From: a virus
Length of the DNA: 64,000 nucleotides
IMG/VR virus record: IMGVR_UViG_3300020182_000023
Span: 1 to 64,000 of that record
Reading direction: 5' to 3' (one strand)
The notes beneath the pieces are model-generated. The model saw only the letters and a list, made by a program, of their open reading frames with translations, searched no databases and had not been told where the DNA came from. Positions 33,779-57,661 of the stretch are shown here, piece after piece. The position numbers were made by a program, and so were the translations under genes. Every line of letters begins with the position of its first letter. Positions within the stretch are counted from its first letter, which is position 1.

Positions 33779-33903
33779 GCTACAAAGATAAGCATTTTAT
33801 AACTTTAGATAAAGTCACATTAAAACGTGGCTGAGCCTTTTGTTATAAACAATAAAAATTACTTGGTTAGTGCCTTAAGTATATTTTGATAAATTCAATT
33901 TCT

Positions 33904-34098
33904 TTATTCATAAGGACATATTTCTTTATAAAACTCCTCGTCTATTTCTTTGATAGCTTTCTCTAGTCTATCCTTCTCTAAAATAGACTGCTTTATCTCG
34001 TGTTTTGTAGCCGTTTTACCTAAATCGGATGCTATGTGCATTTCGTGTAATAAAGCGTCTATATCCTCTCTATCTTGGTCGTCTGTATAATATCCCAT
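33904..34098 (-). CDS. Hypothetical protein
   Basis: ORF coupled to the upstream gene. Confidence 0.6.
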   Translation of the reverse strand: MGYYTDDQDREDIDALLHEMHIASDLGKTATKHEIKQSILEKDRLEKAIKEIDEEFYKEICPYE

Positions 34099-34481
34099 TA
34101 TCTAAATAGTTTTTGTGCTGTATGATTATTTAACCTTACTTTTATTCCGTGTGCTAAACACATTGACCTAAATTCCTCTATGTCTTGCGGAAATGGAATT
34201 ACAATATCATCTCCTATTATAATTTCAGTTGGGTATATATAGTCGTTTAAATCTTTTGAGTATTCAATGCAAGGAATATATGCTATACCATCTCCGTTCT
34301 TTTCTTCTCGCAAAGTTCCTTCAGCTAAATGCCGCATCACAGTATCGGAGTCAAATACATCGCAATAAACTGACGTTATGGATATAAGCTGCTCCTTAAA
34401 TAGCGGATTATTTGGTCTTAACCGATTTAACATTTTACTTAAAGAATCCATTACTTGTACATTTTGTATTTTTGTTTCCAC
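34098..34481 (-). CDS. Hypothetical protein
   Basis: ORF track. Confidence 0.55.
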   Translation of the reverse strand: METKIQNVQVMDSLSKMLNRLRPNNPLFKEQLISITSVYCDVFDSDTVMRHLAEGTLREEKNGDGIAYIPCIEYSKDLNDYIYPTEIIIGDDIVIPFPQDIEEFRSMCLAHGIKVRLNNHTAQKLFR

Positions 34482-34513
34482 AAATATATAAGTAAAATCA
34501 ATCGAAATACATT

Positions 34514-34783
34514 ATGGATGAATTAATTTTTGGTAAAATACGCTCCATATCTTACGATAAGTATAATGGTGGGGATATTAGAACGTTTACATTTACCGCT
34601 GGTCAGCATATACGCTCTATGAGTGCTACGGTTACAAGAATAACATTTGACGAACTACACTTCATAAATACCAACACTCCTAGATACATTATATTTATTC
34701 AAAAGGATAATGAGAGTTATGAAGAACAATGGAAGGGTGTTCCTGCTTACAAGGCTTTAATTGAACAAGACCTGTCTATTTAG
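34514..34783 (+). CDS. Hypothetical protein
   Basis: ORF; RSIS..F..GQ..Y.I.I..WK pattern seen in Bacteroidota phage small proteins. Confidence 0.55.
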   Translation: MDELIFGKIRSISYDKYNGGDIRTFTFTAGQHIRSMSATVTRITFDELHFINTNTPRYIIFIQKDNESYEEQWKGVPAYKALIEQDLSI

Positions 34784-35240
34784 CTTCTTCTCTTTCTTTT
34801 GCTAGTTTATATTGGTAGGGGTTAATTTTTAGCCTTCTCATTCTTTTTTCGGGGTGGTTGTCTAGGTATTCTAATATCATTTCTTGTACGTCAATACCTT
34901 TTCCCATAGCCCAAGATAGGTTTCTTCTTACGTCTGACTCTAATGGCTCTGTTCCTAGTCTATGTATCCACATATTGTAAGACTTCTCATCCATCTGTAT
35001 TAAGTCTTTTCCGCCAAATTGCGCTGCATCAATAACGTATGAAGGGGATTTATTTAAAGCTAATGCAATAGCTATCACTTGACTTATGTTTAGTCTGTAT
35101 AGAGGTGCTGATAATATCTCCCTTATTTCGTTTGTGCTAGTAGTTTTAGGTAAACTAAGCAGCAATTTAATGTCTTTAAATATAAGCCCTGTTTGTAATA
35201 GCTTATCTAGTAGAAATATTTTACTGTCGTCTTTTATCAT
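34776..35240 (-). CDS. Putative HTH regulator
   Basis: LNISQVIAIALALNKSP resembles an XRE C-terminal helix; divergent from the rep-like gene. Confidence 0.4.
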   Translation of the reverse strand: MIKDDSKIFLLDKLLQTGLIFKDIKLLLSLPKTTSTNEIREILSAPLYRLNISQVIAIALALNKSPSYVIDAAQFGGKDLIQMDEKSYNMWIHRLGTEPLESDVRRNLSWAMGKGIDVQEMILEYLDNHPEKRMRRLKINPYQYKLAKEREEAK

Positions 35241-35400
35241 TTAACAGCAAAGATATTAAATTTAACTGCTGTATTTTGATTGAAATTGTCGCTTATATGC
35301 TACATTAATAGCTGTTTTTTTAGTTAATGATGGAATATTCATTCATCTGCTATATGTTTTTTTTTATCTCTTTTACTGTGTTTGTATAAAAAAAAATGTT

Positions 35401-35495
35401 TATGTTTGCATTAACAACGAGTGCAGTCGTTAGAAAATATTTAAAATCCTTCCGTTAGTAGGCTCTGCACAGCCGAAAGCGTGAAGGATTTTTTT
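35401..35495 (+). promoter_or_regulatory. Promoter + kissing-loop 5' leader (copy 1)
   Basis: TATGTTTG; hairpin AACGA-GTGCAG-TCGTT; second hairpin apical loop CTGCAC inside AAAATCCTTC/GAAGGATTTT. Confidence 0.7.
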
Positions 35496-35509
35496 ATACA
35501 TAATAATTT

Positions 35510-36130
35510 ATGAAAACAGGAAACATTGTAAAAGCTAAATTTACTGACGAGTTTGTTAGAATACATAACTCAATAGCTAGAAATCCGAAAATGTCAATGA
35601 AGGAGAAGGGTCTGTTATTGATAATAATGTCATTACCCGAAAACTGGACATTACACATAAGTCAGCTTCCCGCTTTTTGCGGAGAAGGGAAAACCGCTGT
35701 CAGAAATGCGTTTAAGTCCTTGAAAGAAAAAGGCTTTATTATTGAAGTTGAAATGAGGGCTTCCGATGGGAGGTTTAACGGGAAAAATTATATGGCTTAC
35801 TACGAAAGTCAAACCATTGAAGAATTTATGGTAAAACGCTCTACAACCAAGGCAGATTCACCGCGTGCGGGTTTTCGGGATGCGGATAAACGGGATGCGG
35901 ATAACAGGACACTACAAAGAAAGAACGTTACACTTAATAAAAAGAAAGAAAACAAAAAAGAAAAAAAAGAAAAAGAGCAGTTAGATTTTTCTTTTTTTCT
36001 TTTTAAGCTTAAGCAAGGTCAGCGCATACCAAAAACAGAAGTACCTAATCATTTATTAAATGAATTTAATTCTTCAACAGAAGTTTTGTATAATCAAGAA
36101 GAATCATATTACTTTATGCTACCATTTTAA
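35510..36130 (+). CDS. Replication initiator-like winged-helix protein
   Basis: F..I.N..MS.KEKGLL..SLPENW..AF..LKEKGFI HTH; internal repeats followed by a K/E-rich linker. Confidence 0.7.
   Translation: MKTGNIVKAKFTDEFVRIHNSIARNPKMSMKEKGLLLIIMSLPENWTLHISQLPAFCGEGKTAVRNAFKSLKEKGFIIEVEMRASDGRFNGKNYMAYYESQTIEEFMVKRSTTKADSPRAGFRDADKRDADNRTLQRKNVTLNKKKENKKEKKEKEQLDFSFFLFKLKQGQRIPKTEVPNHLLNEFNSSTEVLYNQEESYYFMLPF
35861..35905 (+). repeat. Iteron-like 15-bp repeats
   Basis: CCGCGTGCGGGTTTT / CGGGATGCGGATAAA / CGGGATGCGGATAAC, followed by A-rich then T-rich tracts. Confidence 0.6.
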
Positions 36131-36779: not shown

Positions 36780-36998
36780 ATGGAATTTTCACTATTTTTA
36801 AACAACGGAGAACAAATAAATATAAACACAGAAGATTATACAGACCCTACTAGAACGGTTATGGAATACCTTATATCAATGCTAGAATATTATGAAACAG
36901 AATTATCCTTCTGTGATGAAGAAAATGAATTACTGTATCAGCAAGTGGAATATTGTAAACTACTTACTGATTTGTTGAAGCCAGAGATAAAGAATTAA
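36780..36998 (+). CDS. Acidic hypothetical protein
   Basis: ATG 4 nt after TATATTTG; stop codon is the TAA of the following TAAC. Confidence 0.6.
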   Translation: MEFSLFLNNGEQININTEDYTDPTRTVMEYLISMLEYYETELSFCDEENELLYQQVEYCKLLTDLLKPEIKN

Positions 36999-37041
36999 CA
37001 CCAAGCTAAGAAGCGTTTTAATGCTTTCTTAGCGGCTGTTA
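36996..37041 (+). repeat. attC-like palindrome, short type
   Basis: TAAC-ACC-AA-GCTAAG-AAGCGTT-TT-AATGCTT-T-CTTAGC-GGCT-GTTA. Confidence 0.75.
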
Positions 37042-37114
37042 TGCAACGTTTTAATGTTGCAATTTTTAACCCTTATTAACATTAACCAATAGATAATATT
37101 AATACATTTGAATT

Positions 37115-37546
37115 ATGATACAAATAGATAATATAGAAATAGACCCCACTGCATTAGTAGTGTTAGGAGGGTTTGCATTAGGGATGATTATAGCCCCTTT
37201 TGATTCCGCATTAATAAAAAGAGAATACAGGCTAGAATGGCTGTATCACACAGCTAAGTTTATGCTTATGTTCTTGTTAGGTGGTGCGTTATTACACCAC
37301 GTTCTACCTAAAGATGGATACTTCGTTCCAAGACTTATAGCTTGCTCATTATCATACAGCATTTCCTTTGACTTGTTTTTAAACTTTTTAAGAGGCAAGG
37401 AGATATTTTACATAGGACAAACTGCTTTTCTTGATAAGATGGCTAGAAAGTACCTTAAAACGGGTTTAAACTATATTTTCGTAAGGTTATTAGCTGTGTT
37501 TTTGATTGGAGTAGGAATAGTAATACATATTTTATTAAATAATTAA
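37115..37546 (+). CDS. Multi-pass membrane protein
   Basis: Four hydrophobic segments; FD..LN..RG..FYIG.TA..D motif. Confidence 0.65.
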   Translation: MIQIDNIEIDPTALVVLGGFALGMIIAPFDSALIKREYRLEWLYHTAKFMLMFLLGGALLHHVLPKDGYFVPRLIACSLSYSISFDLFLNFLRGKEIFYIGQTAFLDKMARKYLKTGLNYIFVRLLAVFLIGVGIVIHILLNN

Positions 37547-38063: not shown

Positions 38064-38714
38064 ATGTATAAATATATTATAATGGAATATAAGATAGAAA
38101 AACAAGCTAAAGGCACTCGAATACTTTTCGGGGATGAGGTAAGAGATAGATACACGCTATTAAATAAAATGATAGCTACCGTTGAGTCTTACGGGTTTCA
38201 AGGAATACAACTGCCTAGCATAGAGCCGTCTGAAATATACATAGACAAAGCAGGGAGAGAAGTGCTTAATCAAATGTGGGTGTTTCCAGATAAAAAAGGA
38301 AGGAATGTATGCTTACGCCCAGAGGCAACGGCTACCGTTCAGCTAATCGCTAATCATTTCTGGCAAGCTAAAAAAGAAATAAGAGTTTGGTATTTTGAGA
38401 AATGCTGGAGATACGAAAAACCGCAAAGGGGCAGATACAGAGAATTTTGGCAGTTCGGTTGCGAAGTAATAAACCCATCTACTGATTTAATAAAAGAAGA
38501 ATTAATAGACATATCTAAAGAACTTTGTGAACTTCAAACAAAGGATATAACGATAGATTATTCCGTAACAAGGGGATTGGGCTATTATACAGATAAAGGC
38601 TTTGAATTACGCTGTAAGCAACTAGGAGCGCAAGAACAGATATGCGGAGGTGGTTCTTATGATAGAGGAATTGGGTTTGCCATTGGGTTTGATAGATTAA
38701 TGCTTTGTAAATAA
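38064..38714 (+). CDS. Histidyl-tRNA synthetase-like protein, catalytic core only
   Basis: KGTR, LRPE.T, motif 2 RYEKPQRGRYREFWQ, RGLGYY, GGGSYD, motif 3 GFAIGFDRL then stop; likely start 38082. Confidence 0.85.
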   Translation: MYKYIIMEYKIEKQAKGTRILFGDEVRDRYTLLNKMIATVESYGFQGIQLPSIEPSEIYIDKAGREVLNQMWVFPDKKGRNVCLRPEATATVQLIANHFWQAKKEIRVWYFEKCWRYEKPQRGRYREFWQFGCEVINPSTDLIKEELIDISKELCELQTKDITIDYSVTRGLGYYTDKGFELRCKQLGAQEQICGGGSYDRGIGFAIGFDRLMLCK

Positions 38715-39236: not shown

Positions 39237-39283
39237 TAACACCCGTCTAAGAAACGCTTTAATGTTTCTTTTGGCGGCTGTTA
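39237..39283 (+). repeat. attC-like palindrome, short type
   Basis: TAAC-ACCCGTCTAAGAAAC..GTTTCTTTTGGCGGCT-GTTA; homologous to 36996. Confidence 0.7.
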
Positions 39284-39350
39284 GATAAAGTTTAACAACC
39301 ATTTTACCCGACAGGGGAAATTGGTTAAGGAACATTAATAGATTTGAATT

Positions 39351-39725
39351 ATGAAACTACACAAAGACATATTATACTCCGTAGGAGATGAAATTGAGAT
39401 AGATAACATTAAATACACCATAGAACTCGCAGGATGGGGTAAAATACGACTACATAAGAAATGCTGTGGTGATATGTCCGCTGCCAAAGAAGTAGATGAC
39501 GTAACAGCTATACGGGGCTTAGATATAATAATAGCACTTAATGAAGAAGGTGCTACTGAAGAGGTAGAGGAAATTAAAAATAACTTAGAATGTCATTTTA
39601 ATGAAATTGAGTGTAAATTTAAATCTGAAGAATCTAACCTTAATGACAAAATCCGCATATTAGAAGCGCAGAATAAAGATTTAAAGAATGAACTAGAGGA
39701 TGATAAGTCTTGGTGGATATGGTAG
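39351..39725 (+). CDS. Hypothetical coiled-coil protein
   Basis: ORF track. Confidence 0.55.
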   Translation: MKLHKDILYSVGDEIEIDNIKYTIELAGWGKIRLHKKCCGDMSAAKEVDDVTAIRGLDIIIALNEEGATEEVEEIKNNLECHFNEIECKFKSEESNLNDKIRILEAQNKDLKNELEDDKSWWIW

Positions 39726-39726
39726 C

Positions 39727-39756
39727 GATACGATAAGATACGATAAGATACGATAA
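39727..39756. repeat. 10-bp tandem repeat GATACGATAA x3
   Basis: Directly visible. Confidence 0.85.
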
Positions 39757-39805
39757 TAATACGAAAAAGAGTTTAAGAAATGAAAACAACAGAAAGCTCG
39801 GTTAA

Positions 39806-41277: not shown

Positions 41278-42375
41278 CTATTCTGCTTTATTACCGTGAC
41301 CACCAATACCATTCTCTTTCTTGTATTTTGAAATCTTAATCGCTATGTTAGATTGGGATGTTCCTAACTTCTCTGCTATTTTCCATTGTGGCATTGTCTT
41401 ATTCATTTCGTACAATTCTTTATAGTCGTATTTTCTGTTTCTTTTATCTAAGCCGTTAAGCCTAGCGCCAAATCTTTTTATAGCTGTTTCAACAGCCCCG
41501 TCACCACAATTATAATACTCAGTTAGCATTTTTAGCGTGTACCTCTTTTCTACTAAGCTTAAAAACTCATCTTTATCTGCTATACCATAGGGCTTAACAT
41601 AAATATCTTCACTTCTAAGCTCACCATACTTAATAATAATCCTTTTAACAGCACCAACACTAATCTGATACTTATCAGAAATAAACTCTATGCTATTACC
41701 AGATTCGTAGGACTTAGAAAAAACCTTACCCCTACAATCTTTGTAGTTGATATTTCGAGTTATCCGTACAATAGTAGGAGGAGATACATTAAACATATCA
41801 GCTATTTCCGTATTACTAACCAACTCTTCAGAATAAAGCCTTTTAATTTCCCGCTGCTCATCATAGGAGAAATTAGTAAACTTATCCTTAATAACCCTAT
41901 TACTCCTACCATCAAATACGCCTAGTTCAACCAACAGTGATTTAATAACAGCGCTTGATACATTATACTGATTAGCTATATAAGTTATAGGGTAAGACTC
42001 ATACATATCAACTATATTCTTCTTGTCAGAATCACTAAACGAATACTTAGTCCCAGATAAGTAACCAGCATCTTTCTGCCTTTTTCTATTTTCCTCTGGA
42101 GTAACCCACTCTAAGTTACTAGAGGCATTATTAAGCCTATTAAAGTCCTTATGGTCAACTTCGTGTCTATCGCTAGGAGGTAGCCCATTAAAAGCTAGAC
42201 AAACAAGTCTATGTACATACTGAGAGTGCCTGCCCTTTTCATTATGCCTAACTCCAACGGATAAGTACTTACCACCCTTTAATTGAGGCTTTAGTACATT
42301 ACCTCTCTTCTTATTATAAACATTTCCTAATTCATCTACTTGGTACTTATCGTACATTGGTATATTCTTTTTCAT
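41278..42375 (-). CDS. HNH homing endonuclease with multiple HTH repeats
   Basis: VHRLV..F..VDHKD.NRLNN..NLEWVT..EN; five HTH-like units. Confidence 0.85.
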   Translation of the reverse strand: MKKNIPMYDKYQVDELGNVYNKKRGNVLKPQLKGGKYLSVGVRHNEKGRHSQYVHRLVCLAFNGLPPSDRHEVDHKDFNRLNNASSNLEWVTPEENRKRQKDAGYLSGTKYSFSDSDKKNIVDMYESYPITYIANQYNVSSAVIKSLLVELGVFDGRSNRVIKDKFTNFSYDEQREIKRLYSEELVSNTEIADMFNVSPPTIVRITRNINYKDCRGKVFSKSYESGNSIEFISDKYQISVGAVKRIIIKYGELRSEDIYVKPYGIADKDEFLSLVEKRYTLKMLTEYYNCGDGAVETAIKRFGARLNGLDKRNRKYDYKELYEMNKTMPQWKIAEKLGTSQSNIAIKISKYKKENGIGGHGNKAE

Positions 42376-46891: not shown

Positions 46892-46981
46892 AAACGGGTA
46901 GGTATATGATTAGTGTGCGATTGCACTAACCTTTGAATTAAAACAAATATTAACTAAGCACATTAACTATATACATTGTTA
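46892..46981 (+). repeat. attC-like palindrome, long type
   Basis: AAAC; arms GTATATGATTAGTGTGC / GCACATTAACTATATAC; ATT-GTTA. Confidence 0.75.
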
Positions 46982-47004
46982 GGGTGCGTTTAAATTAAAT
47001 TATT

Positions 47005-47208
47005 ATGACTTACGAAGACTTTTTATTCTCACAATTATTTATGAACCACGTTGAGAATAACGAAACACAATATCAAGAACTTGAATATGACTTGATATTC
47101 CCCGAAGTATTAAAGCACCAAAATCTATTCTTAAAATCTAATTACAATTTAGACGTTTGTAGCGAATACGATTGCATAGTAAACTACCTTCTTAATGAAG
47201 TGAAGTAA
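47005..47208 (+). CDS. Acidic cassette protein
   Basis: ORF bounded by GTTAGGGT and ACCCTAAC. Confidence 0.7.
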   Translation: MTYEDFLFSQLFMNHVENNETQYQELEYDLIFPEVLKHQNLFLKSNYNLDVCSEYDCIVNYLLNEVK

Positions 47209-47215
47209 TGAACCC

Positions 47216-47303
47216 TAACGTTTAGTATAAGATTAGTGCGCTAAACTATAAACTTTGAATTAAGCACTAACATAACCAAGCGCATTAATTTTATACATTG
47301 TTA
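47216..47303 (+). repeat. attC-like palindrome, long type
   Basis: TAAC; arms GTATAAGATTAGTGCGCT / AGCGCATTAATTTTATAC; ATT-GTTA; homologous to 46892. Confidence 0.8.
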
Positions 47304-47324
47304 TGCGCTTTTAATTAAATTATT

Positions 47325-47517: not shown

Positions 47518-47604
47518 TAACACCAAGCTAAGAAACGTAAAGCGCAGCACAATGTTTAATCTTAGCACAATACTATATTGCTTTATGGTGTATAGGTTGT
47601 GTTA
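47518..47604 (+). repeat. attC-like palindrome, hybrid
   Basis: First 27 nt identical to the 54107 element; ends GTGTTA. Confidence 0.65.
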
Positions 47605-48154: not shown

Positions 48155-48640
48155 ATGGCTGATAGAACACACGGAATGTCTAGCACTAGGGAATACAAGG
48201 TATGGAAGACTATAAAAGATAGGTGCTATGGAATTAATAGCGATTGCTATGACAGATACGGAGGCAGAGGTATAGTTATGCAGTATAATTGGATTAACAA
48301 CTACATAGAATACTATAATTATGCAAGTAAGATAGATGGATTCTCAGACCCTAATAAATCAATAGATAGAATAGATTCTAATGGAAACTACGAAGAGGGT
48401 AATATTAAATTCTCTACCCCTAGTCAACAATGCGCTAATAGAAGGCTATTCAAGAACTCTAAATCAGGCTACACTGGCGTAGTTAAAAAAGGAAAGAAAT
48501 ACGAGGCTACCATAAGCGTTAACGGTAAAAGGATATATATAGGAAGGCATAAAGACCCTAAAGTATTGGCTATAATGAGAGACGAATATATAATCAAAAA
48601 CAATCTTACCGAGTACCCACTTCAAATTTTAAATAGATGA
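48155..48640 (+). CDS. HNH-AP2 homing endonuclease
   Basis: W..IKDRC..YGGRGI, SIDRID.NGNYE.GN, SGY.GV..YIG AP2 domain. Confidence 0.85.
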   Translation: MADRTHGMSSTREYKVWKTIKDRCYGINSDCYDRYGGRGIVMQYNWINNYIEYYNYASKIDGFSDPNKSIDRIDSNGNYEEGNIKFSTPSQQCANRRLFKNSKSGYTGVVKKGKKYEATISVNGKRIYIGRHKDPKVLAIMRDEYIIKNNLTEYPLQILNR

Positions 48641-50595
48641 ATAAAGTATCAGTATTCAAGCACTATAAAGACACTCACAGCCCTATACACGCAGATGTAT
48701 TTGGTATCTTAGAAAAGATAAAGACTGGAGGTAACGAGAAAGAACTAATCGAACACATAAGAACCTTAGAAGGTGATGAATATAAGAAAGAGAAACTAAA
48801 ACTGCCGTTAATTTGCTTTGGTGGTACGTTTGGGAATAGAAGTAAAGACGGAATTATTAACGGTTCGGGTATGATTCCATTAGATTTTGATGAAGGCACT
48901 GAGGATGAACTTAATGAACTTAGAAAAACATTAGAGTCTCAGCCATACACAATAGCAGTATTCTCTTCGCCACGTTTAAGAGGTAGATTTAAAGCTCTTA
49001 TACGCATCCCTGTTACATCTTCGGATGAAGAGTTCAAAAAGTATTTTGCCGCCTTAAAAAAGGAGTATAAGACCATAGACCCTAGTGGTAAAGATATTTC
49101 CAGAGCATCGTTCTTCACCTACGACCCTGATATTTACATTAACAAAGATGCTACGGTGTGGGATATTAAATACGAAACACCTAAGCAAAAGAAAACAACA
49201 GAAAGATATACAGTTAGAGATTGGGATTCTGTTACCAATGCACTAAAGAAAATCGAGACAGCAGAAGATGGGTATAAGCATTTAGCTAGAACTAAGATTG
49301 CATATTTAATGGGAGGTTGGATTAGCGCAAAGCAAATTAACTACCAAGAGGCAATGAAATTATTAGAGGATGCCGTTGCTAAGAATACAACAGACCTTGA
49401 TGCTGCAATGAAAACCGTTAAGGATTGTGTACAAGCAGGAATGAACGCCCCACTTAATATGTCAGAGCAAAGAGAGGTATTAAAACTATCCGTTGCAGCC
49501 CCTAGAAGGTATAAGCCTATGTCTGAGGTATGGGATGATGTACAGAATTTCTATGAAACGGGCTATAAGCGTGGTTGGGATGTTGGGTTTAATTGTGCTA
49601 AAGAATATCTTAGCATCTTAGAGGGTAGTACTAGTTATGTTTATGCTGCGCCTGCTGCTGGTAAAACTCAGGTTTGGATGGAGATACTTATGAATATAAC
49701 CATTGACAGAGTTAGGAGTGGGGAAGATTTTTACAATCAAATATTCACGCCCGAAACGGGAGATGTAGCACAAGTGTATGGGGAGTTAATTAGTATTCAC
49801 GCTAAGAAATCTTTTGTTGGTAAATATAAGATGTCGGAAGATGAAATGAAAGCATCTGCTGATTTTGTATCTAAGTACTTTTTGATATTAGACTACGAAG
49901 GAGATACGGCTGATATGAAAGGAATATTAACACAAGTGGAGGCTGCTGAAAGAGAATTTGGAATACATATTAATACGGTTACTATTGACCCGTTAAACTA
50001 CCTATCTTTTGATGAGGGTAGATATAGTAGAAGGGATTTATCCATTGCTAAGGATTTAGATTTATTCCTTGCTGATGCCCGAAAAAATAAAAGGCATAAC
50101 TGTATAATAACCCATGCACGCGACCAGCAAGCAATTAAAAATAATGATGGTCAATGGTATTATCCGTTAGTCAGCCCTAGAATGATTTTAGATGGGCAAC
50201 AGTTTTTTAGAAAAGGTATGTTAATGATTAGTATATACAGACCATTAGATATAAAGAATGAGCCTTTAGCTGATGATAACGGTTATCCCGCAGAGCAGAA
50301 CGAAACCCAAGTATGGATACAGAAAGCTAAACCTAAAGGCTGCGCTAAGGTAGGTATGTTTAAATTATTCTACGACTTTAAGGCTAATAGATATTACGAG
50401 AAAGACGAACAAGGTAGAGAGTTCTTTGCTTGGGGAGTACCTAGACAGCAAGAAGATAAATTTCCGCCAATACAAAAGGAGATAAAGCAAATACCCCCCG
50501 TTAAGAAAGAAGAGGACTCATTAAAAGCTAACACAAGTTTTGATGAGCCAACCCCAATAATAGATGATATTGAAATAATGGAATCCCCATTTTAA
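48637..50595 (+). CDS. Primase-helicase (VirE/BT4734-like N-terminus + SF4 helicase)
   Basis: K.KLP..GTF..LDFD..F.SP..KAL..D.SG.D.SR..DP; Walker A AAPAAGKT, IDP Walker B, ITH, QKAKP. Confidence 0.85.
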   Translation: MNKVSVFKHYKDTHSPIHADVFGILEKIKTGGNEKELIEHIRTLEGDEYKKEKLKLPLICFGGTFGNRSKDGIINGSGMIPLDFDEGTEDELNELRKTLESQPYTIAVFSSPRLRGRFKALIRIPVTSSDEEFKKYFAALKKEYKTIDPSGKDISRASFFTYDPDIYINKDATVWDIKYETPKQKKTTERYTVRDWDSVTNALKKIETAEDGYKHLARTKIAYLMGGWISAKQINYQEAMKLLEDAVAKNTTDLDAAMKTVKDCVQAGMNAPLNMSEQREVLKLSVAAPRRYKPMSEVWDDVQNFYETGYKRGWDVGFNCAKEYLSILEGSTSYVYAAPAAGKTQVWMEILMNITIDRVRSGEDFYNQIFTPETGDVAQVYGELISIHAKKSFVGKYKMSEDEMKASADFVSKYFLILDYEGDTADMKGILTQVEAAEREFGIHINTVTIDPLNYLSFDEGRYSRRDLSIAKDLDLFLADARKNKRHNCIITHARDQQAIKNNDGQWYYPLVSPRMILDGQQFFRKGMLMISIYRPLDIKNEPLADDNGYPAEQNETQVWIQKAKPKGCAKVGMFKLFYDFKANRYYEKDEQGREFFAWGVPRQQEDKFPPIQKEIKQIPPVKKEEDSLKANTSFDEPTPIIDDIEIMESPF

Positions 50596-52145: not shown

Positions 52146-52679
52146 ATGGAAGAATGGAGGGATGTTTCGGGGTATGATGGCAGGTATCAAGTTAGTAATT
52201 TAGGTAGAGTAAAGAGTCTTGATATGATTATAAATAATAGGCATAATAGTACATCTAAAAAGAAAGGAAGGATATTAAAACAGCAACCTAACAAGAAGGG
52301 TTATCTTCAGGTAAGATTATGCTACAAAAAAACACATAAAAGCTGTAGGGTGCATAGATTAATTACTGAAGCTTTTATCCCTAATCCAGAGAATAAGCCT
52401 CAAGTAAACCATATAAATGGAGTTAAGGATGATAATAGGGTTGAAAATTTAGAATGGTGTACAAATAAGGAAAATCAAATACACGCAACAAAAAATGGGC
52501 TATTTAATCCTAATTTTGGAGAAGAGCATCATATGTCTAAGTTGACAAATAATCAAGCCAAGCACATTAGGCTACTTAAATCAAGAGGTTTTACGCTAAA
52601 TAAATTATCTAAAAAATACAAACTGTCAATGACAGCGATAAGCAACATAGTAAATAATAAAACTTATATAAATATCTAA
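52146..52679 (+). CDS. NUMOD4-HNH homing endonuclease
   Basis: EEWRDV.GY.G.YQVSNLGRVKS; VHRL..AFIPNP..VNHING.K.DNRV.NLEW. Confidence 0.9.
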   Translation: MEEWRDVSGYDGRYQVSNLGRVKSLDMIINNRHNSTSKKKGRILKQQPNKKGYLQVRLCYKKTHKSCRVHRLITEAFIPNPENKPQVNHINGVKDDNRVENLEWCTNKENQIHATKNGLFNPNFGEEHHMSKLTNNQAKHIRLLKSRGFTLNKLSKKYKLSMTAISNIVNNKTYINI

Positions 52680-53163: not shown

Positions 53164-53343
53164 ATGAAAGAAGAAATAGAAAGTAAACTATCCCCGCAAC
53201 AGATGGTAGTAATAGACTCTTTAAGAGAGCAATTAGGAGATGACACAGTTAATATACTCCTAGAGTTTGGTTATGAAATAGGTAAGGCAGATGGAGTAGA
53301 GATGTTCTTTCAGCAGACTAAAGATATTTTAAAGGAAGCATAA
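53164..53343 (+). CDS. Hypothetical protein (59 aa)
   Basis: Manual ORF MKEEIESKLS..; stop is the TAA of TAAC. Confidence 0.6.
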   Translation: MKEEIESKLSPQQMVVIDSLREQLGDDTVNILLEFGYEIGKADGVEMFFQQTKDILKEA

Positions 53344-53441
53344 CGTTGAGTATAAACGGTCGTTACGGATGTGTAGATATGTTTCACAACGTTTAGAGTA
53401 AAAACTGCATAGCGTAGCGGAGTTGTTTTTAAACTTTGTTA
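53341..53441 (+). repeat. Two adjacent attC-like sites (truncated 53341-53365; fuller 53387-53441)
   Basis: TAACGTTGAGT start shared with 46560; CAAC..AGAGTAAAAAC..GCGTAGC..GTTTTT..ACTTT-GTTA. Confidence 0.6.
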
Positions 53442-53463
53442 TGCGTTGCGTAAAATTAAGATT

Positions 53464-53691
53464 ATGACACCAAAAGAAAAAGCAAAAGAATTACAGAATA
53501 AACACCTTTACTGCTATTTAAACCCTGCTTACCCATTACACGATAGATTTGATGTTATTCAAGCGTCTGAGCAAGCATTGGTAACAGTAAATGAAATACT
53601 TGAAAGTTTTTTAATAGATATTCCAGACCACCAATTTAAGTTTTGGGAAGAAGTTAAGAGCGAATTAAACACCATAATATTAGGAGAATGA
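53464..53691 (+). CDS. Hypothetical protein (MTPKEKA family)
   Basis: MTPKEKAKEL..AL..V.EI..FW.EVK.E pattern common in Bacteroidota phages. Confidence 0.7.
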   Translation: MTPKEKAKELQNKHLYCYLNPAYPLHDRFDVIQASEQALVTVNEILESFLIDIPDHQFKFWEEVKSELNTIILGE

Positions 53692-53935
53692 AAACACCAC
53701 TACAGGAATTAATGGAGTATATGGAGCAAAACCAATATTTCATAGGAATGATTTATTGGCTAAGTATAATGAACTTATTGAAAAAGAGAAACAAGAGTTT
53801 ATAAGTTGTTATATTAGAGCTATGACAAAAGAATATCTAAACCCTATGCCGAGAAAATATTATTATGAAGTTGCCGAAGATTATTATTATACTTTTATTA
53901 ACCCATTAGGCAAAAATGAGAAATCCTATAAATAG
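53688..53935 (+). pseudogene. Frameshifted small gene
   Basis: MKTPLQELMEY..FIG continues in another frame as DLLAKYNELIEKEKQ..AEDYY. Confidence 0.5.
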
Positions 53936-53970
53936 CCACTAAACGGTAATTAGTGGCAAAATATAGAACT

Positions 53971-54099
53971 ATGAAAAAGAAACTAATTGAGATACCCGAA
54001 GAAGTATTTAATCAAATAGAATTATCCGCAAAAAAGAATGTAAGGAGTGTAAATAAAGAGATAGTGTTTCTTCTTACGAGTGCGGTGGGTAAAAAATAA
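53971..54099 (+). CDS. Arc-like ribbon-helix-helix protein (42 aa)
   Basis: Manual: MKKKLIEIPEEVFNQIELSAKKNVRSVNKEIVFLL; P.E..A..N.RS.N.EI pattern. Confidence 0.75.
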   Translation: MKKKLIEIPEEVFNQIELSAKKNVRSVNKEIVFLLTSAVGKK

Positions 54100-54106
54100 T
54101 TGCATA

Positions 54107-54160
54107 TAACACCAAGCTAAGAAACGTAAAGCGAAGCGTATGTTTCCTTAGCGACTGTTA
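54107..54160 (+). repeat. attC-like palindrome, short type
   Basis: TAAC-ACCAA-GCTAAG-AAAC..GCGAAGC..GTTT-C-CTTAGC-GACT-GTTA. Confidence 0.75.
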
Positions 54161-54203
54161 ACGCACGTTTTAATGTGCGGAATATTAAAAACTTAAAAAT
54201 ACA

Positions 54204-56715: not shown

Positions 56716-56768
56716 CATATAGTTTCAGTAGAATAAGTTCGTTTCATAATTGCCCTAGTGGATGGTTT
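56712..56768 (+). pseudogene. Orphan N-terminus of a PD-(D/E)XK exonuclease
   Basis: MTYSFSRISSFHNCPSGWF is the typical S.S....CP start of this family. Confidence 0.65.
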
Positions 56769-56777
56769 ATTTTTATT

Positions 56778-56870
56778 TATATTTGTATAGTAGAGTTACG
56801 GCTACTTTTAAATATTTTTACAAAGCCCTGTCAAGAGTAGAGTCCGTAACCTCGAAATTGATGGGGTTTA
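56778..56870 (+). promoter_or_regulatory. Promoter + kissing-loop 5' leader (copy 3)
   Basis: TATATTTG; AGTAG-AGTTACGG-CTACT; GAG-TCCGTAAC-CTC inside a 12-bp stem with 3 G:U. Confidence 0.7.
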
Positions 56871-56875
56871 TTTTT

Positions 56876-57661
56876 ATGCAAGAGTTTACAAAAGAAGAAT
56901 TAAAAAACGAAGAGTGGAGAGATGTAGTTGGATACGAAGGATTGTATCTGGTTAGTGATTTAGGGAGAGTAAAAAGCAGTTACATTGTTAGTAGGGCTAA
57001 AGATGGAATCATTAAAATGGGGAGCGATAAGAATGGGTATTGCAGTTTCGCTTTATGGAAAGACAAATCACAAATTACCAAGAATGGACATCGTGTAGTC
57101 GCTAAAGCATTTTTACCTAATCCAAAAAACAAACCGTGCGTGAATCATATAGATGGTGATAAAAGGAATAATCGAACAACCAACCTAGAATGGGTTACAT
57201 ATAAAGAAAATTCCCGACACGCGATTGAAACTGGTCTGTATAGACACCCTGAAATGAAGAAGGGGTACGACTCGCCACACAGTAAAGAGGTGTATCAGCT
57301 TACGGTAGAGGGTGTTTTTATAAAAGCGTTTGGTTCATCTATCGAGGCGGCTATAAGTTTATTTGGAGATATTAATAGAGGCTCTATTATACGCAAATGC
57401 TGTAGAGATAAATCAAGTTCTTATAAGGGTTTTCTATGGAGATACCCTAAAGACGTTAATAAAGATGCGATTTCAAAACATAAAAGAATAATACAACAGT
57501 TTTCTTTAGAGGGGATTCTTATTAAAGAGTATACTGGTACTAGTGCAGCCCAAAAAGCCACTGGAGTCTTGGCTACTGGTATAGGGAACAATGCAAACGG
57601 GAGGACAAATACCGCTGGGGGGTTTGTCTGGAAATATAAATATGATTACAATTCAATATGA
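56876..57661 (+). CDS. NUMOD4-HNH-NUMOD1 homing endonuclease
   Basis: EEWRDV.GYEG.Y; HRVVA.AF.PNP..VNHIDG; two NUMOD1-like repeats; start moved to MQEF. Confidence 0.9.
   Translation: MQEFTKEELKNEEWRDVVGYEGLYLVSDLGRVKSSYIVSRAKDGIIKMGSDKNGYCSFALWKDKSQITKNGHRVVAKAFLPNPKNKPCVNHIDGDKRNNRTTNLEWVTYKENSRHAIETGLYRHPEMKKGYDSPHSKEVYQLTVEGVFIKAFGSSIEAAISLFGDINRGSIIRKCCRDKSSSYKGFLWRYPKDVNKDAISKHKRIIQQFSLEGILIKEYTGTSAAQKATGVLATGIGNNANGRTNTAGGFVWKYKYDYNSI

Follow-up and report, generated by a model that had tools for sequence, protein, structure and literature searches.

The hairpins at positions 53341-54180 of the viral record IMGVR_UViG_3300020182_000023 (IMG/VR), a 78.7-kb phage of 74% estimated completeness whose first 64 kb (64,000 nucleotides) form the window analyzed here, are probably boundary sites of mobile gene cassettes, that is, integron-like, structure-specific recombination sites comparable to attC and attI, a reading to which we assign a probability of roughly 0.6. 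The observations that carry it are the anatomy of the sites, selection for pairing on the gene-sense strand, a complementarity rule (X/Y) that ties together the two ends of each cassette, insertions and deletions joined directly after an AAC trinucleotide (AAC|), and the finding that host chromosomes also carry this site family, next to a gene for an Xer/IntI-like tyrosine recombinase. The sites lie in an early/replication module at 34-60 kb in which the genes are on the + strand. The host group of the phage is marine Flavobacteriaceae, and a cultured relative, the Maribacter phage Panino, carries the same element as a class I site (defined below).

Examination of the hairpins reveals a family, termed class I, with four window copies, all on the + strand: copy A (36996-37061), copy B (39237-39283), copy C (47518-47604, with an interrupted 3' arm), and the element at 54107-54160. 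A covariance model of class I (R1), built from 13 distinct elements, matched exactly these four positions in the window, with 67.2 bits for the 54107 element. The class I hairpin, TAACACCAAGCTAAG...CTTAGCRRCTGTTA, folds into an outer stem TAACA/TGTTA, an internal loop, a second stem GCTAAG/CTTAGC, and a tip stem that varies between copies yet remains paired, for example as AAGAAGCG/TGCTTTCTT, GGTGCG/GCACC, or GGCGAGTG/CATTCGCTT; at 54107 the tip includes GCGAAGC at 54131-54137. About 20 further class I elements were found in other viral contigs, where the tip stems are sequence-divergent and their pairing is kept. Frequently, a second hairpin stands directly after the GTTA, and here the loop GTTTTAAT is retained while the stem is altered on both sides, as TGCAAC/GTTGCA in copy A, CGCAC/GTGCG behind the 54107 element (54162-54179, +), and TCCGCC/GGCGGA or GCTGC/GCAGC in further cases. 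An alignment of class I with MAFFT and RNAalifold gave zero compensatory pairs because the variable tip was misaligned, and single folds were used instead. A 15-mer scan of genome contigs returned 120 matches, none with the 3' half of the hairpin, and these were set aside as chance matches.

The position of class I elements relative to genes is regular. For all 19 elements examined, from at least a dozen viral contigs, a co-oriented open reading frame (ORF) ends no more than 46 nt before the element (no more than 11 nt in 16 cases), and the stop codon is the TAA of TAAC itself in 10 of these 19 positions. Intergenic regions of the window also contain TAnnTTTG boxes, which we take to match the -7 element of Bacteroidota promoters; one of them, TAcaTTTG, stands behind copy A at ~37103. 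At 37103-37117 and 39337-39353, start codons lie just 4-8 nt past such boxes, so these genes may have leaderless or near-leaderless mRNAs. A degenerate TAAC...GTTTTAAT...GTTA element was further noted on the - strand at 33800-33845, co-oriented with minus-strand genes and with a TAtcTTTG box downstream of it.

An earlier reading made from the sequence alone had listed three sites in this cluster, at 53341, 53387, and 54107. The last stands as a strong family member, whereas the first two fold as one composite site of ~100 nt, from GCATAAC (53338-53344, +) to GTTATGC (53438-53444, +), two boxes that pair with each other, and R1 matches neither 53341 nor 53387. The sequence identities given in that reading were exact: the 27-nt run TAACACCAAGCTAAGAAACGTAAAGCG is common to 54107 and 47518, and 17 nt are common to 54107 and 36996. 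Immediately upstream, a 59-aa ORF (53164-53343, +) ends in a TAA at 53341-53343 that is also the TAA of the composite site's TAAC. The composite hairpin body (53345-53437, +) holds GCGTAGC at 53412-53418 and folds under RNA parameters to -30.0 kcal/mol on the + strand compared with -15.8 kcal/mol on the - strand.

This composite site opens a 766-bp cassette (53345-54110, +) consisting of the site body, three small ORFs, and a terminal TAAC, with ATAAC on both flanks. Its first ORF (53464-53691, +, 75 aa) belongs to PHROG 21441, of unknown function, and among 80 viral loci with relatives of this ORF, a class I element was found in none. The second (53688-53935, +) is split by a frameshift into frames 53688-53804 and 53756-53935; an extra T behind 53746, present in contigs from two other metagenomes, would fuse them. 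The third (53971-54099, +, 42 aa) encodes an Arc-like ribbon-helix-helix protein.

Comparison with two relatives, G001 (92-95% identical, mosaic) and G002 (96-99% identical), places this locus in three states. In G002, which lacks the 54107 element as well as the cassette, the flanking genes overlap at TAATG; in G001, which diverges from the window right after the AAC (53344|53345), only the 54107-type element is present; and in the window, the 53345-54110 segment is inserted before that element. Other insertions and deletions at AAC| comprise a methyltransferase cassette in G002, the segment 46570-47273, and a 1.8-kb block that distinguishes viral contigs L007 and L005, whose flanks around the block are 99.7% identical. 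The ends of the insertions have only TAAC or ATAAC in common. Moreover, metagenome contigs display further alternative joins at 54095-54108 and a spike of depth on the conserved half of the element. Two other origins of these differences were ruled out: homing endonucleases, since the junctions of the HNH insertions differ and are not at AAC, and invertible segments, since the repeats of each cassette differ beyond GTTA.

The ends of the cassettes obey a rule of their own. The bases that precede TAAC (flank X) pair with an upstream GTTA box and its flank (Y) across the intervening ORF, and not with the far side of their own hairpin. In a test on 20 class I elements, TAAC and the 6 nt in front of it were compared with boxes of GTTA plus 6 nt, with a downstream search as the control, and a perfect match was found 150-620 nt upstream in 6 of the 20, compared with one perfect match downstream; matches with one mismatch at 200-260 nt occurred in four records, which represent three distinct cassettes. 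The window itself offers three pairs. In the first, GTTAGGGT at 46978 and ACCCTAAC at 47219 bound a single-ORF cassette (46978-47219, +). The second joins GTTATGCGC at 47300 to the 5' flank of copy C, GCGCATAAC at 47521 (9/9, picked out by eye and from an inverted-repeat listing), and the third joins TTTATAGGTA at ~39034 to the 5' flank of copy B, TACCTATAAC (9/10). GTTA did not stand out when inverted repeats were counted by their 4-mer core, as AT-rich repeats swamp the count.

The upstream partner Y is the 3' foot of a second type of hairpin, class II, which starts at AAC|G, has arms of ~18 nt, and can contain a promoter-like box and a start codon within its loop. ORFs that start within class II loops read across the GTTA in differing frames, which rules out a crossover at G|TT on the sense strand and places it at the 5' AAC, in agreement with the insertions and deletions. 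Taken together, the AAC/GTT hairpin, the complementarity of cassette ends across an ORF, and the whole-cassette differences joined at AAC| bear out the attC-like character that the sequence-only reading had proposed.

Pairing is under selection on the gene-sense strand. Stem positions that are not Watson-Crick pairs are G.T on the + (sense) strand, as had been claimed from the window copies, and this is evident in a census of 1x1 mismatches over 24 sites, which counted 68 G.U and 0 A.C for the sense strand and 39 G.U and 18 A.C for the antisense strand; it is from this census that the selection follows. Under RNA parameters, 14 of 17 sites folded better on the + strand, and the mean difference was -3.6 kcal/mol. 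Both the census and the energies are compatible with the sense strand folding as RNA or as single-stranded DNA (ssDNA) alike.

The GCGNAGC loops, on which the earlier proposal had placed weight, proved far less informative. Their positions were given correctly (GCGCAGC 47542, GCGTAGC 53412, and GCGAAGC 54131); the motif nevertheless occurs 11 times in the window against 9.8 expected, and the cases at 47542 and 54131, being homologous copies, are not independent of each other. In other phage contigs, a C-GNA-G mini-hairpin does turn up again in the loops of homologous sites (GCGAAGC in several contexts, GCGCAGC in L035, and GCCGGAGGC in L054). The commoner loop of the family is GTTTTAAT; GCGNAGC is a minor loop variant rather than a defining feature.

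The site family extends beyond this phage. A clusters of attC sites lacking integron-integrases (CALIN) element has been described in Polaribacter phage P12002L, and IntI1 was shown to recombine one site of this element with attI1, only as the bottom strand (Qi et al. 2023, PMC9892861). Reading the P12002L genome, we found that its intergenic sites belong to the same family and that its methyltransferase and Mom-like cassettes keep the X/Y rule, as GTTACCTA/TAGGTAAC and GTTACCCA/TGGGTAAC. For the compact class II sites, a separate covariance model (R2) was made; its alignment comprises 18 pairs, of which 8 vary on both sides, and G.U is invariant or almost invariant at three positions. R2 matched 32 of 151 Flavobacteriaceae genomes; in the window, it matched 47213-47308 only, weakly (27 bits), and gave no match at 53341-53441. 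Although class I and class II are separate models, they are linked by AAC/GTT feet, by GTTTTAAT loops, and by chimeric sites such as L007b. R1, for its part, matched 1 of the 151 genomes, in a prophage-like stretch, and in G087, where the only class I-like match among the Flavobacteriaceae genomes lies, no tyrosine recombinase was found on the contig concerned.

Six Flavobacteriaceae regions (L287-L292) were read, and in these the site arrays lie ~1-10 kb from a tyrosine recombinase, with four intact ORFs of 355-410 aa and two that are apparently broken. The best family matches of these enzymes are to XerA/integron-integrase and IntI models, at scores below the cut-offs and with the IntI match in two pieces; the integron-integrase cut-off (TIGR02249) was reached in 0 of 201 Flavobacteriaceae genomes. 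The recombinases, one example being the ORF at L288:785-1852 (-), carry an N-terminal extension of ~100 aa and are divergent from the cassettes in one array and co-directional in the others. Across the cassettes of the arrays, X/Y runs measure 10, 7, 10, 10, 9, and 10 nt, compared with 3 nt for a site's own flank. We found no earlier description of these chromosomal arrays in the literature. The modelled strand is antisense to the ORFs in the bacterial arrays, which is the classical integron polarity, whereas it is sense in the phages. Thus, of the opposite polarity suggested by the sequence-only reading, the gene-to-site orientation holds, while the geometry of the site itself does not depart from that of attC, with a crossover in the folded strand's 5' AAC, where attC bottom strands have theirs. 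The distinct recombinase family that it had envisaged fares similarly: the enzyme of the bacterial arrays is Xer/IntI-like and falls below integron-integrase cut-offs, yet in searches for three recombinase families none was found in the window's phage or in most relatives.

These observations can be assembled into a model of cassette exchange. On the sense strand, a cassette would comprise the hairpin body, GTTA with flank Y, usually a TAnnTTTG box, at least one ORF, flank X complementary to Y, and a final TAA-C whose TAA often would serve as the stop codon. Exchange would take place at AAC|, where the sense-strand hairpin has its 5' foot; upon excision and closure, X-TAAC and GTTA-Y would together build the long basal stem of a complete site, so that a circular form of the 53345-54110 cassette would join TTGCATATAAC (54110) to GTTGAGTATAAACGG (53345). 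The class I hairpins (54107, 47518, 39237, and 36996) may act as resident docking sites, in front of which cassettes with a more variable hairpin at their head (53341-53441, for instance) would be inserted. In its folded form, the site would be ssDNA of the sense strand, which could be provided, for example, by the lagging-strand template rightward of a likely origin at 34-35 kb. The change of sign in GC skew at ~34000-35500, at a divergent gene junction beside the replication initiator gene (35510-36130), suggests that the origin is likely to lie there, in which case lagging-strand synthesis would use the sense strand as its template on either arm. As this phage and most of its relatives carry none of the recombinase families searched, we infer that a host Xer/IntI-like enzyme may act in trans. 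Whether the phage thus possesses an exchange system of its own, with class I as an attI-like dock and self-expressed cassettes inserted at the sense-strand AAC foot by the host enzyme during infection, is a more tentative proposition, which we regard as possible while placing it below even odds.

Several results weigh against cassette exchange at these sites. With regard to enzymes, neither a tyrosine recombinase (PF00589) nor a Y1 transposase (Y1_Tnp) was found in any of eight phage records (60-85% estimated completeness), a serine recombinase was found in one of the five phage records searched, a provirus, and an Xer/IntI-like recombinase within ~10 kb of sites was found in the bacterial arrays and not in the phage records; an all-against-all comparison of proteins from the eight records revealed zero proteins common to all. 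With regard to the sites, they stand kilobases apart and not after each ORF, most mosaic junctions between this phage and G002 fall at ordinary gene boundaries and not at AAC, and the X/Y rule is kept only loosely in the 53438-54110 cassette, where GTTATGC faces an imperfect match, GCAT(AT)AAC, at the cassette end (54102-54110). No circular cassette or junction read was seen in the data, which come from one sequencing run presumed to be RNA and three DNA runs, consist of assembled contigs only, and are unable to reveal RNA ends, strand, or rare circular forms. Furthermore, folds with DNA parameters have no strand preference (mean difference -0.2 kcal/mol, + strand better in 9 of 17 sites), and RNA structure would account equally well for the G.U bias. 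Top-strand folding, as put forward from the sequence alone, therefore survives in that, according to the G.T/A.C census, the sense strand is kept pairable and fails in its DNA energies, where bottom strands fold as well, an outcome that the proposal itself had named as speaking against it and that formally does so for these energies.

The main rival takes up precisely this last point. The hairpins could be sense-strand RNA elements that punctuate early transcripts, through 3'-end formation, RNase processing, or mRNA protection, followed by a downstream promoter, and cassette gain and loss would then be a by-product of slippage or template switching between TAAC repeats brought together by the hairpins, with no recombinase involved. 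Such a role would suit the RNA energies, which favor the sense strand where DNA energies do not, the absence of A.C pairs from that strand, the tie to stop codons and the co-orientation with genes in 19 of 19 cases, a minus-strand copy among minus-strand genes, the TAnnTTTG boxes after many copies, and the failure of the searched recombinase families to appear in the window's phage or most relatives. It is nonetheless unlikely in our judgment. The hairpins do not have the form of intrinsic terminators, as a T-run stands after copy A alone in the window, not after 54107 or most homologs, and a U-tract is thus confined to some copies; searches of Rfam at gathering and at permissive thresholds yielded no relevant family for the hairpins. 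The promoter-like box and ATG within class II loops would leave the cassette's own mRNA without the 5' arm; in the bacterial arrays, which adjoin a recombinase, the same sites lie antisense to the ORFs; and a P12002L site was recombined under IntI1 (PMC9892861).

Clearly less probable is an arrangement like that of the promoter early stem-loops (PeSLs) of T4-like phages, which are cassettes of a promoter and a stem-loop (PMC2839356, PMC4122927). Here, repeated regulatory units would provide homology for general recombination (Erf, SSB, and exonuclease) and would shuffle the ORFs that lie between them. The 17-28 identical nt common to class I copies, the identical elements beside different flanks in different contigs, and the Erf, SSB, and PD-(D/E)XK nuclease encoded by the phage would fit this arrangement, and both mini-circles and an absent integrase have been described for PeSLs (PMC2839356). 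However, clean insertions and deletions join class I to an unrelated hairpin with only TAAC or ATAAC in common, too short for homologous exchange, AAC| junctions between sites without extended homology were seen in four cases, and complementarity of X and Y across each ORF is not a PeSL trait. Lastly, non-autonomous single-strand transposons of the IS200/IS605 or palindrome-associated transposable element (PATE) type, mobilized by an HUH Y1 transposase in trans, can be largely dismissed, for although insertion directly 3' of a fixed tetranucleotide (TAAC), strand specificity, a left-end hairpin, and no target duplication beyond TAAC recall such elements, Y1_Tnp matched in none of the eight phage records, TAAC itself belongs to the hairpin stem, a separate hairpin is lacking at the right end, and the bacterial arrays adjoin a tyrosine recombinase of the Xer/IntI kind.

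Elsewhere in the 34-60 kb module, the genes include the replication initiator, a primase-helicase (48637-50595), Erf, SSB, a DnaA_C-like helix-turn-helix protein, the PD-(D/E)XK nuclease, and several NUMOD4-HNH endonucleases. The four HNH endonuclease genes lie at 41278-42375 (-), 48155-48640, 52146-52679, and 56762-57661, three of them with NUMOD4 and HNH_3 (Pfam). Three of the four are present or absent relative to G001 and G002, and 48155-48640 lies in a segment replaced in both, a pattern that fits free-standing homing endonucleases; a megablast search of 46-56 kb against phage records returned fragments of HNH genes only. Within the primase-helicase ORF, a perfect 14-nt inverted repeat with GTTA/TAAC ends (GTTAATTTGCTTTG ... 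CAAAGCAAATTAAC, 48807-49341) brackets the BT4734-like N-terminal domain, which could reflect domain-level exchange by the cassette route or chance. The match of a 216-aa ORF at 38064-38714 to histidyl-tRNA synthetase is confined to the catalytic core (class II core), the ORF having roughly half of the length that is usual, and GATACGATAA occurs in short tandem repeats at 39730-39765, right after the stop codon of ORF 39351-39725.

The swapping of small accessory genes among phages (morons, anti-defense genes, and methyltransferases) is a long-standing question and is usually ascribed to rare illegitimate recombination. Here, the swapped units end in defined folded sites, they are joined at a fixed point, and a family of host enzymes stands as a candidate for the reaction, which makes the question testable in the cultured P12002L and Panino systems. 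If true, an exchange system belonging to the phage would constitute a defined mechanism for gaining morons and anti-restriction methyltransferases. Integron-like biology is also extended in three respects, as the recombinase lacks the IntI hallmark, the sites occur on Flavobacteriaceae chromosomes, and the polarity of gene to site is reversed, and standard attC finders would pick up such sites only in part.

Among known systems, attC sites and CALINs are the closest comparison. Both they and the phage sites form an imperfect hairpin with AAC and GTT at the foot, an internal loop or unpaired spacer, a second stem, and a variable tip; in both, the bases that precede AAC are complementary to the beginning of their own cassette (imperfectly for 53438-54110), the crossover lies in the 5'-foot AAC of the folded strand (for the phage sites, as the AAC| junctions suggest), whole cassettes come and go at AAC|, and DNA methyltransferases appear as cargo. 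The P12002L CALIN, with one site recombined by IntI1 (PMC9892861), has the same site family. By contrast, the full RYYYAAC/GTTRRRY consensus is not reached, with approximately 3 of 15 5' boxes and 2 of 13 3' boxes fitting it; the phage ORFs are sense to the folded strand, and their promoter-like boxes and start codons are located within the site or downstream of it, whereas those of attC cassettes are on the opposite strand and promoterless; the phage sites are sparse and do not follow every ORF; no IntI was found in the eight phage records, although CALINs need none; and the class I hairpin is highly conserved in phages and present in 1 of 151 Flavobacteriaceae genomes. The Flavobacteriaceae arrays have in common with the phage sites the R2 family, the GTTTTAAT loops, and the X/Y rule; they differ in that their folded strand is antisense to the ORFs with a recombinase 1-10 kb away, whereas the phage strand is sense and a recombinase was not found in the phage records.

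In the case of CTX-phi, a folded ssDNA hairpin exploits the host Xer recombinases, and the whole genome integrates at dif. The likeness is that of a phage ssDNA hairpin that mimics the core site of a tyrosine recombinase and is served by a host enzyme; here, however, small cassettes move within and between double-stranded DNA phage genomes, and the part played by Xer is one that we infer. PeSLs likewise are intergenic units of hairpin and promoter that flank variable small ORFs and mark insertions and deletions between close relatives with no integrase, but PeSL copies exchange by homology, whereas the junctions described here have only AAC or TAAC in common and the cassettes own complementary ends. 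IS200/IS605 elements and PATEs differ in their Y1 HUH transposase and in hairpins near both ends, compared with the left-end hairpin alone in the present case. Finally, phage morons resemble these cassettes as self-contained units of promoter and gene between conserved genes, and while morons are without a defined recombination site, these cassettes have one.

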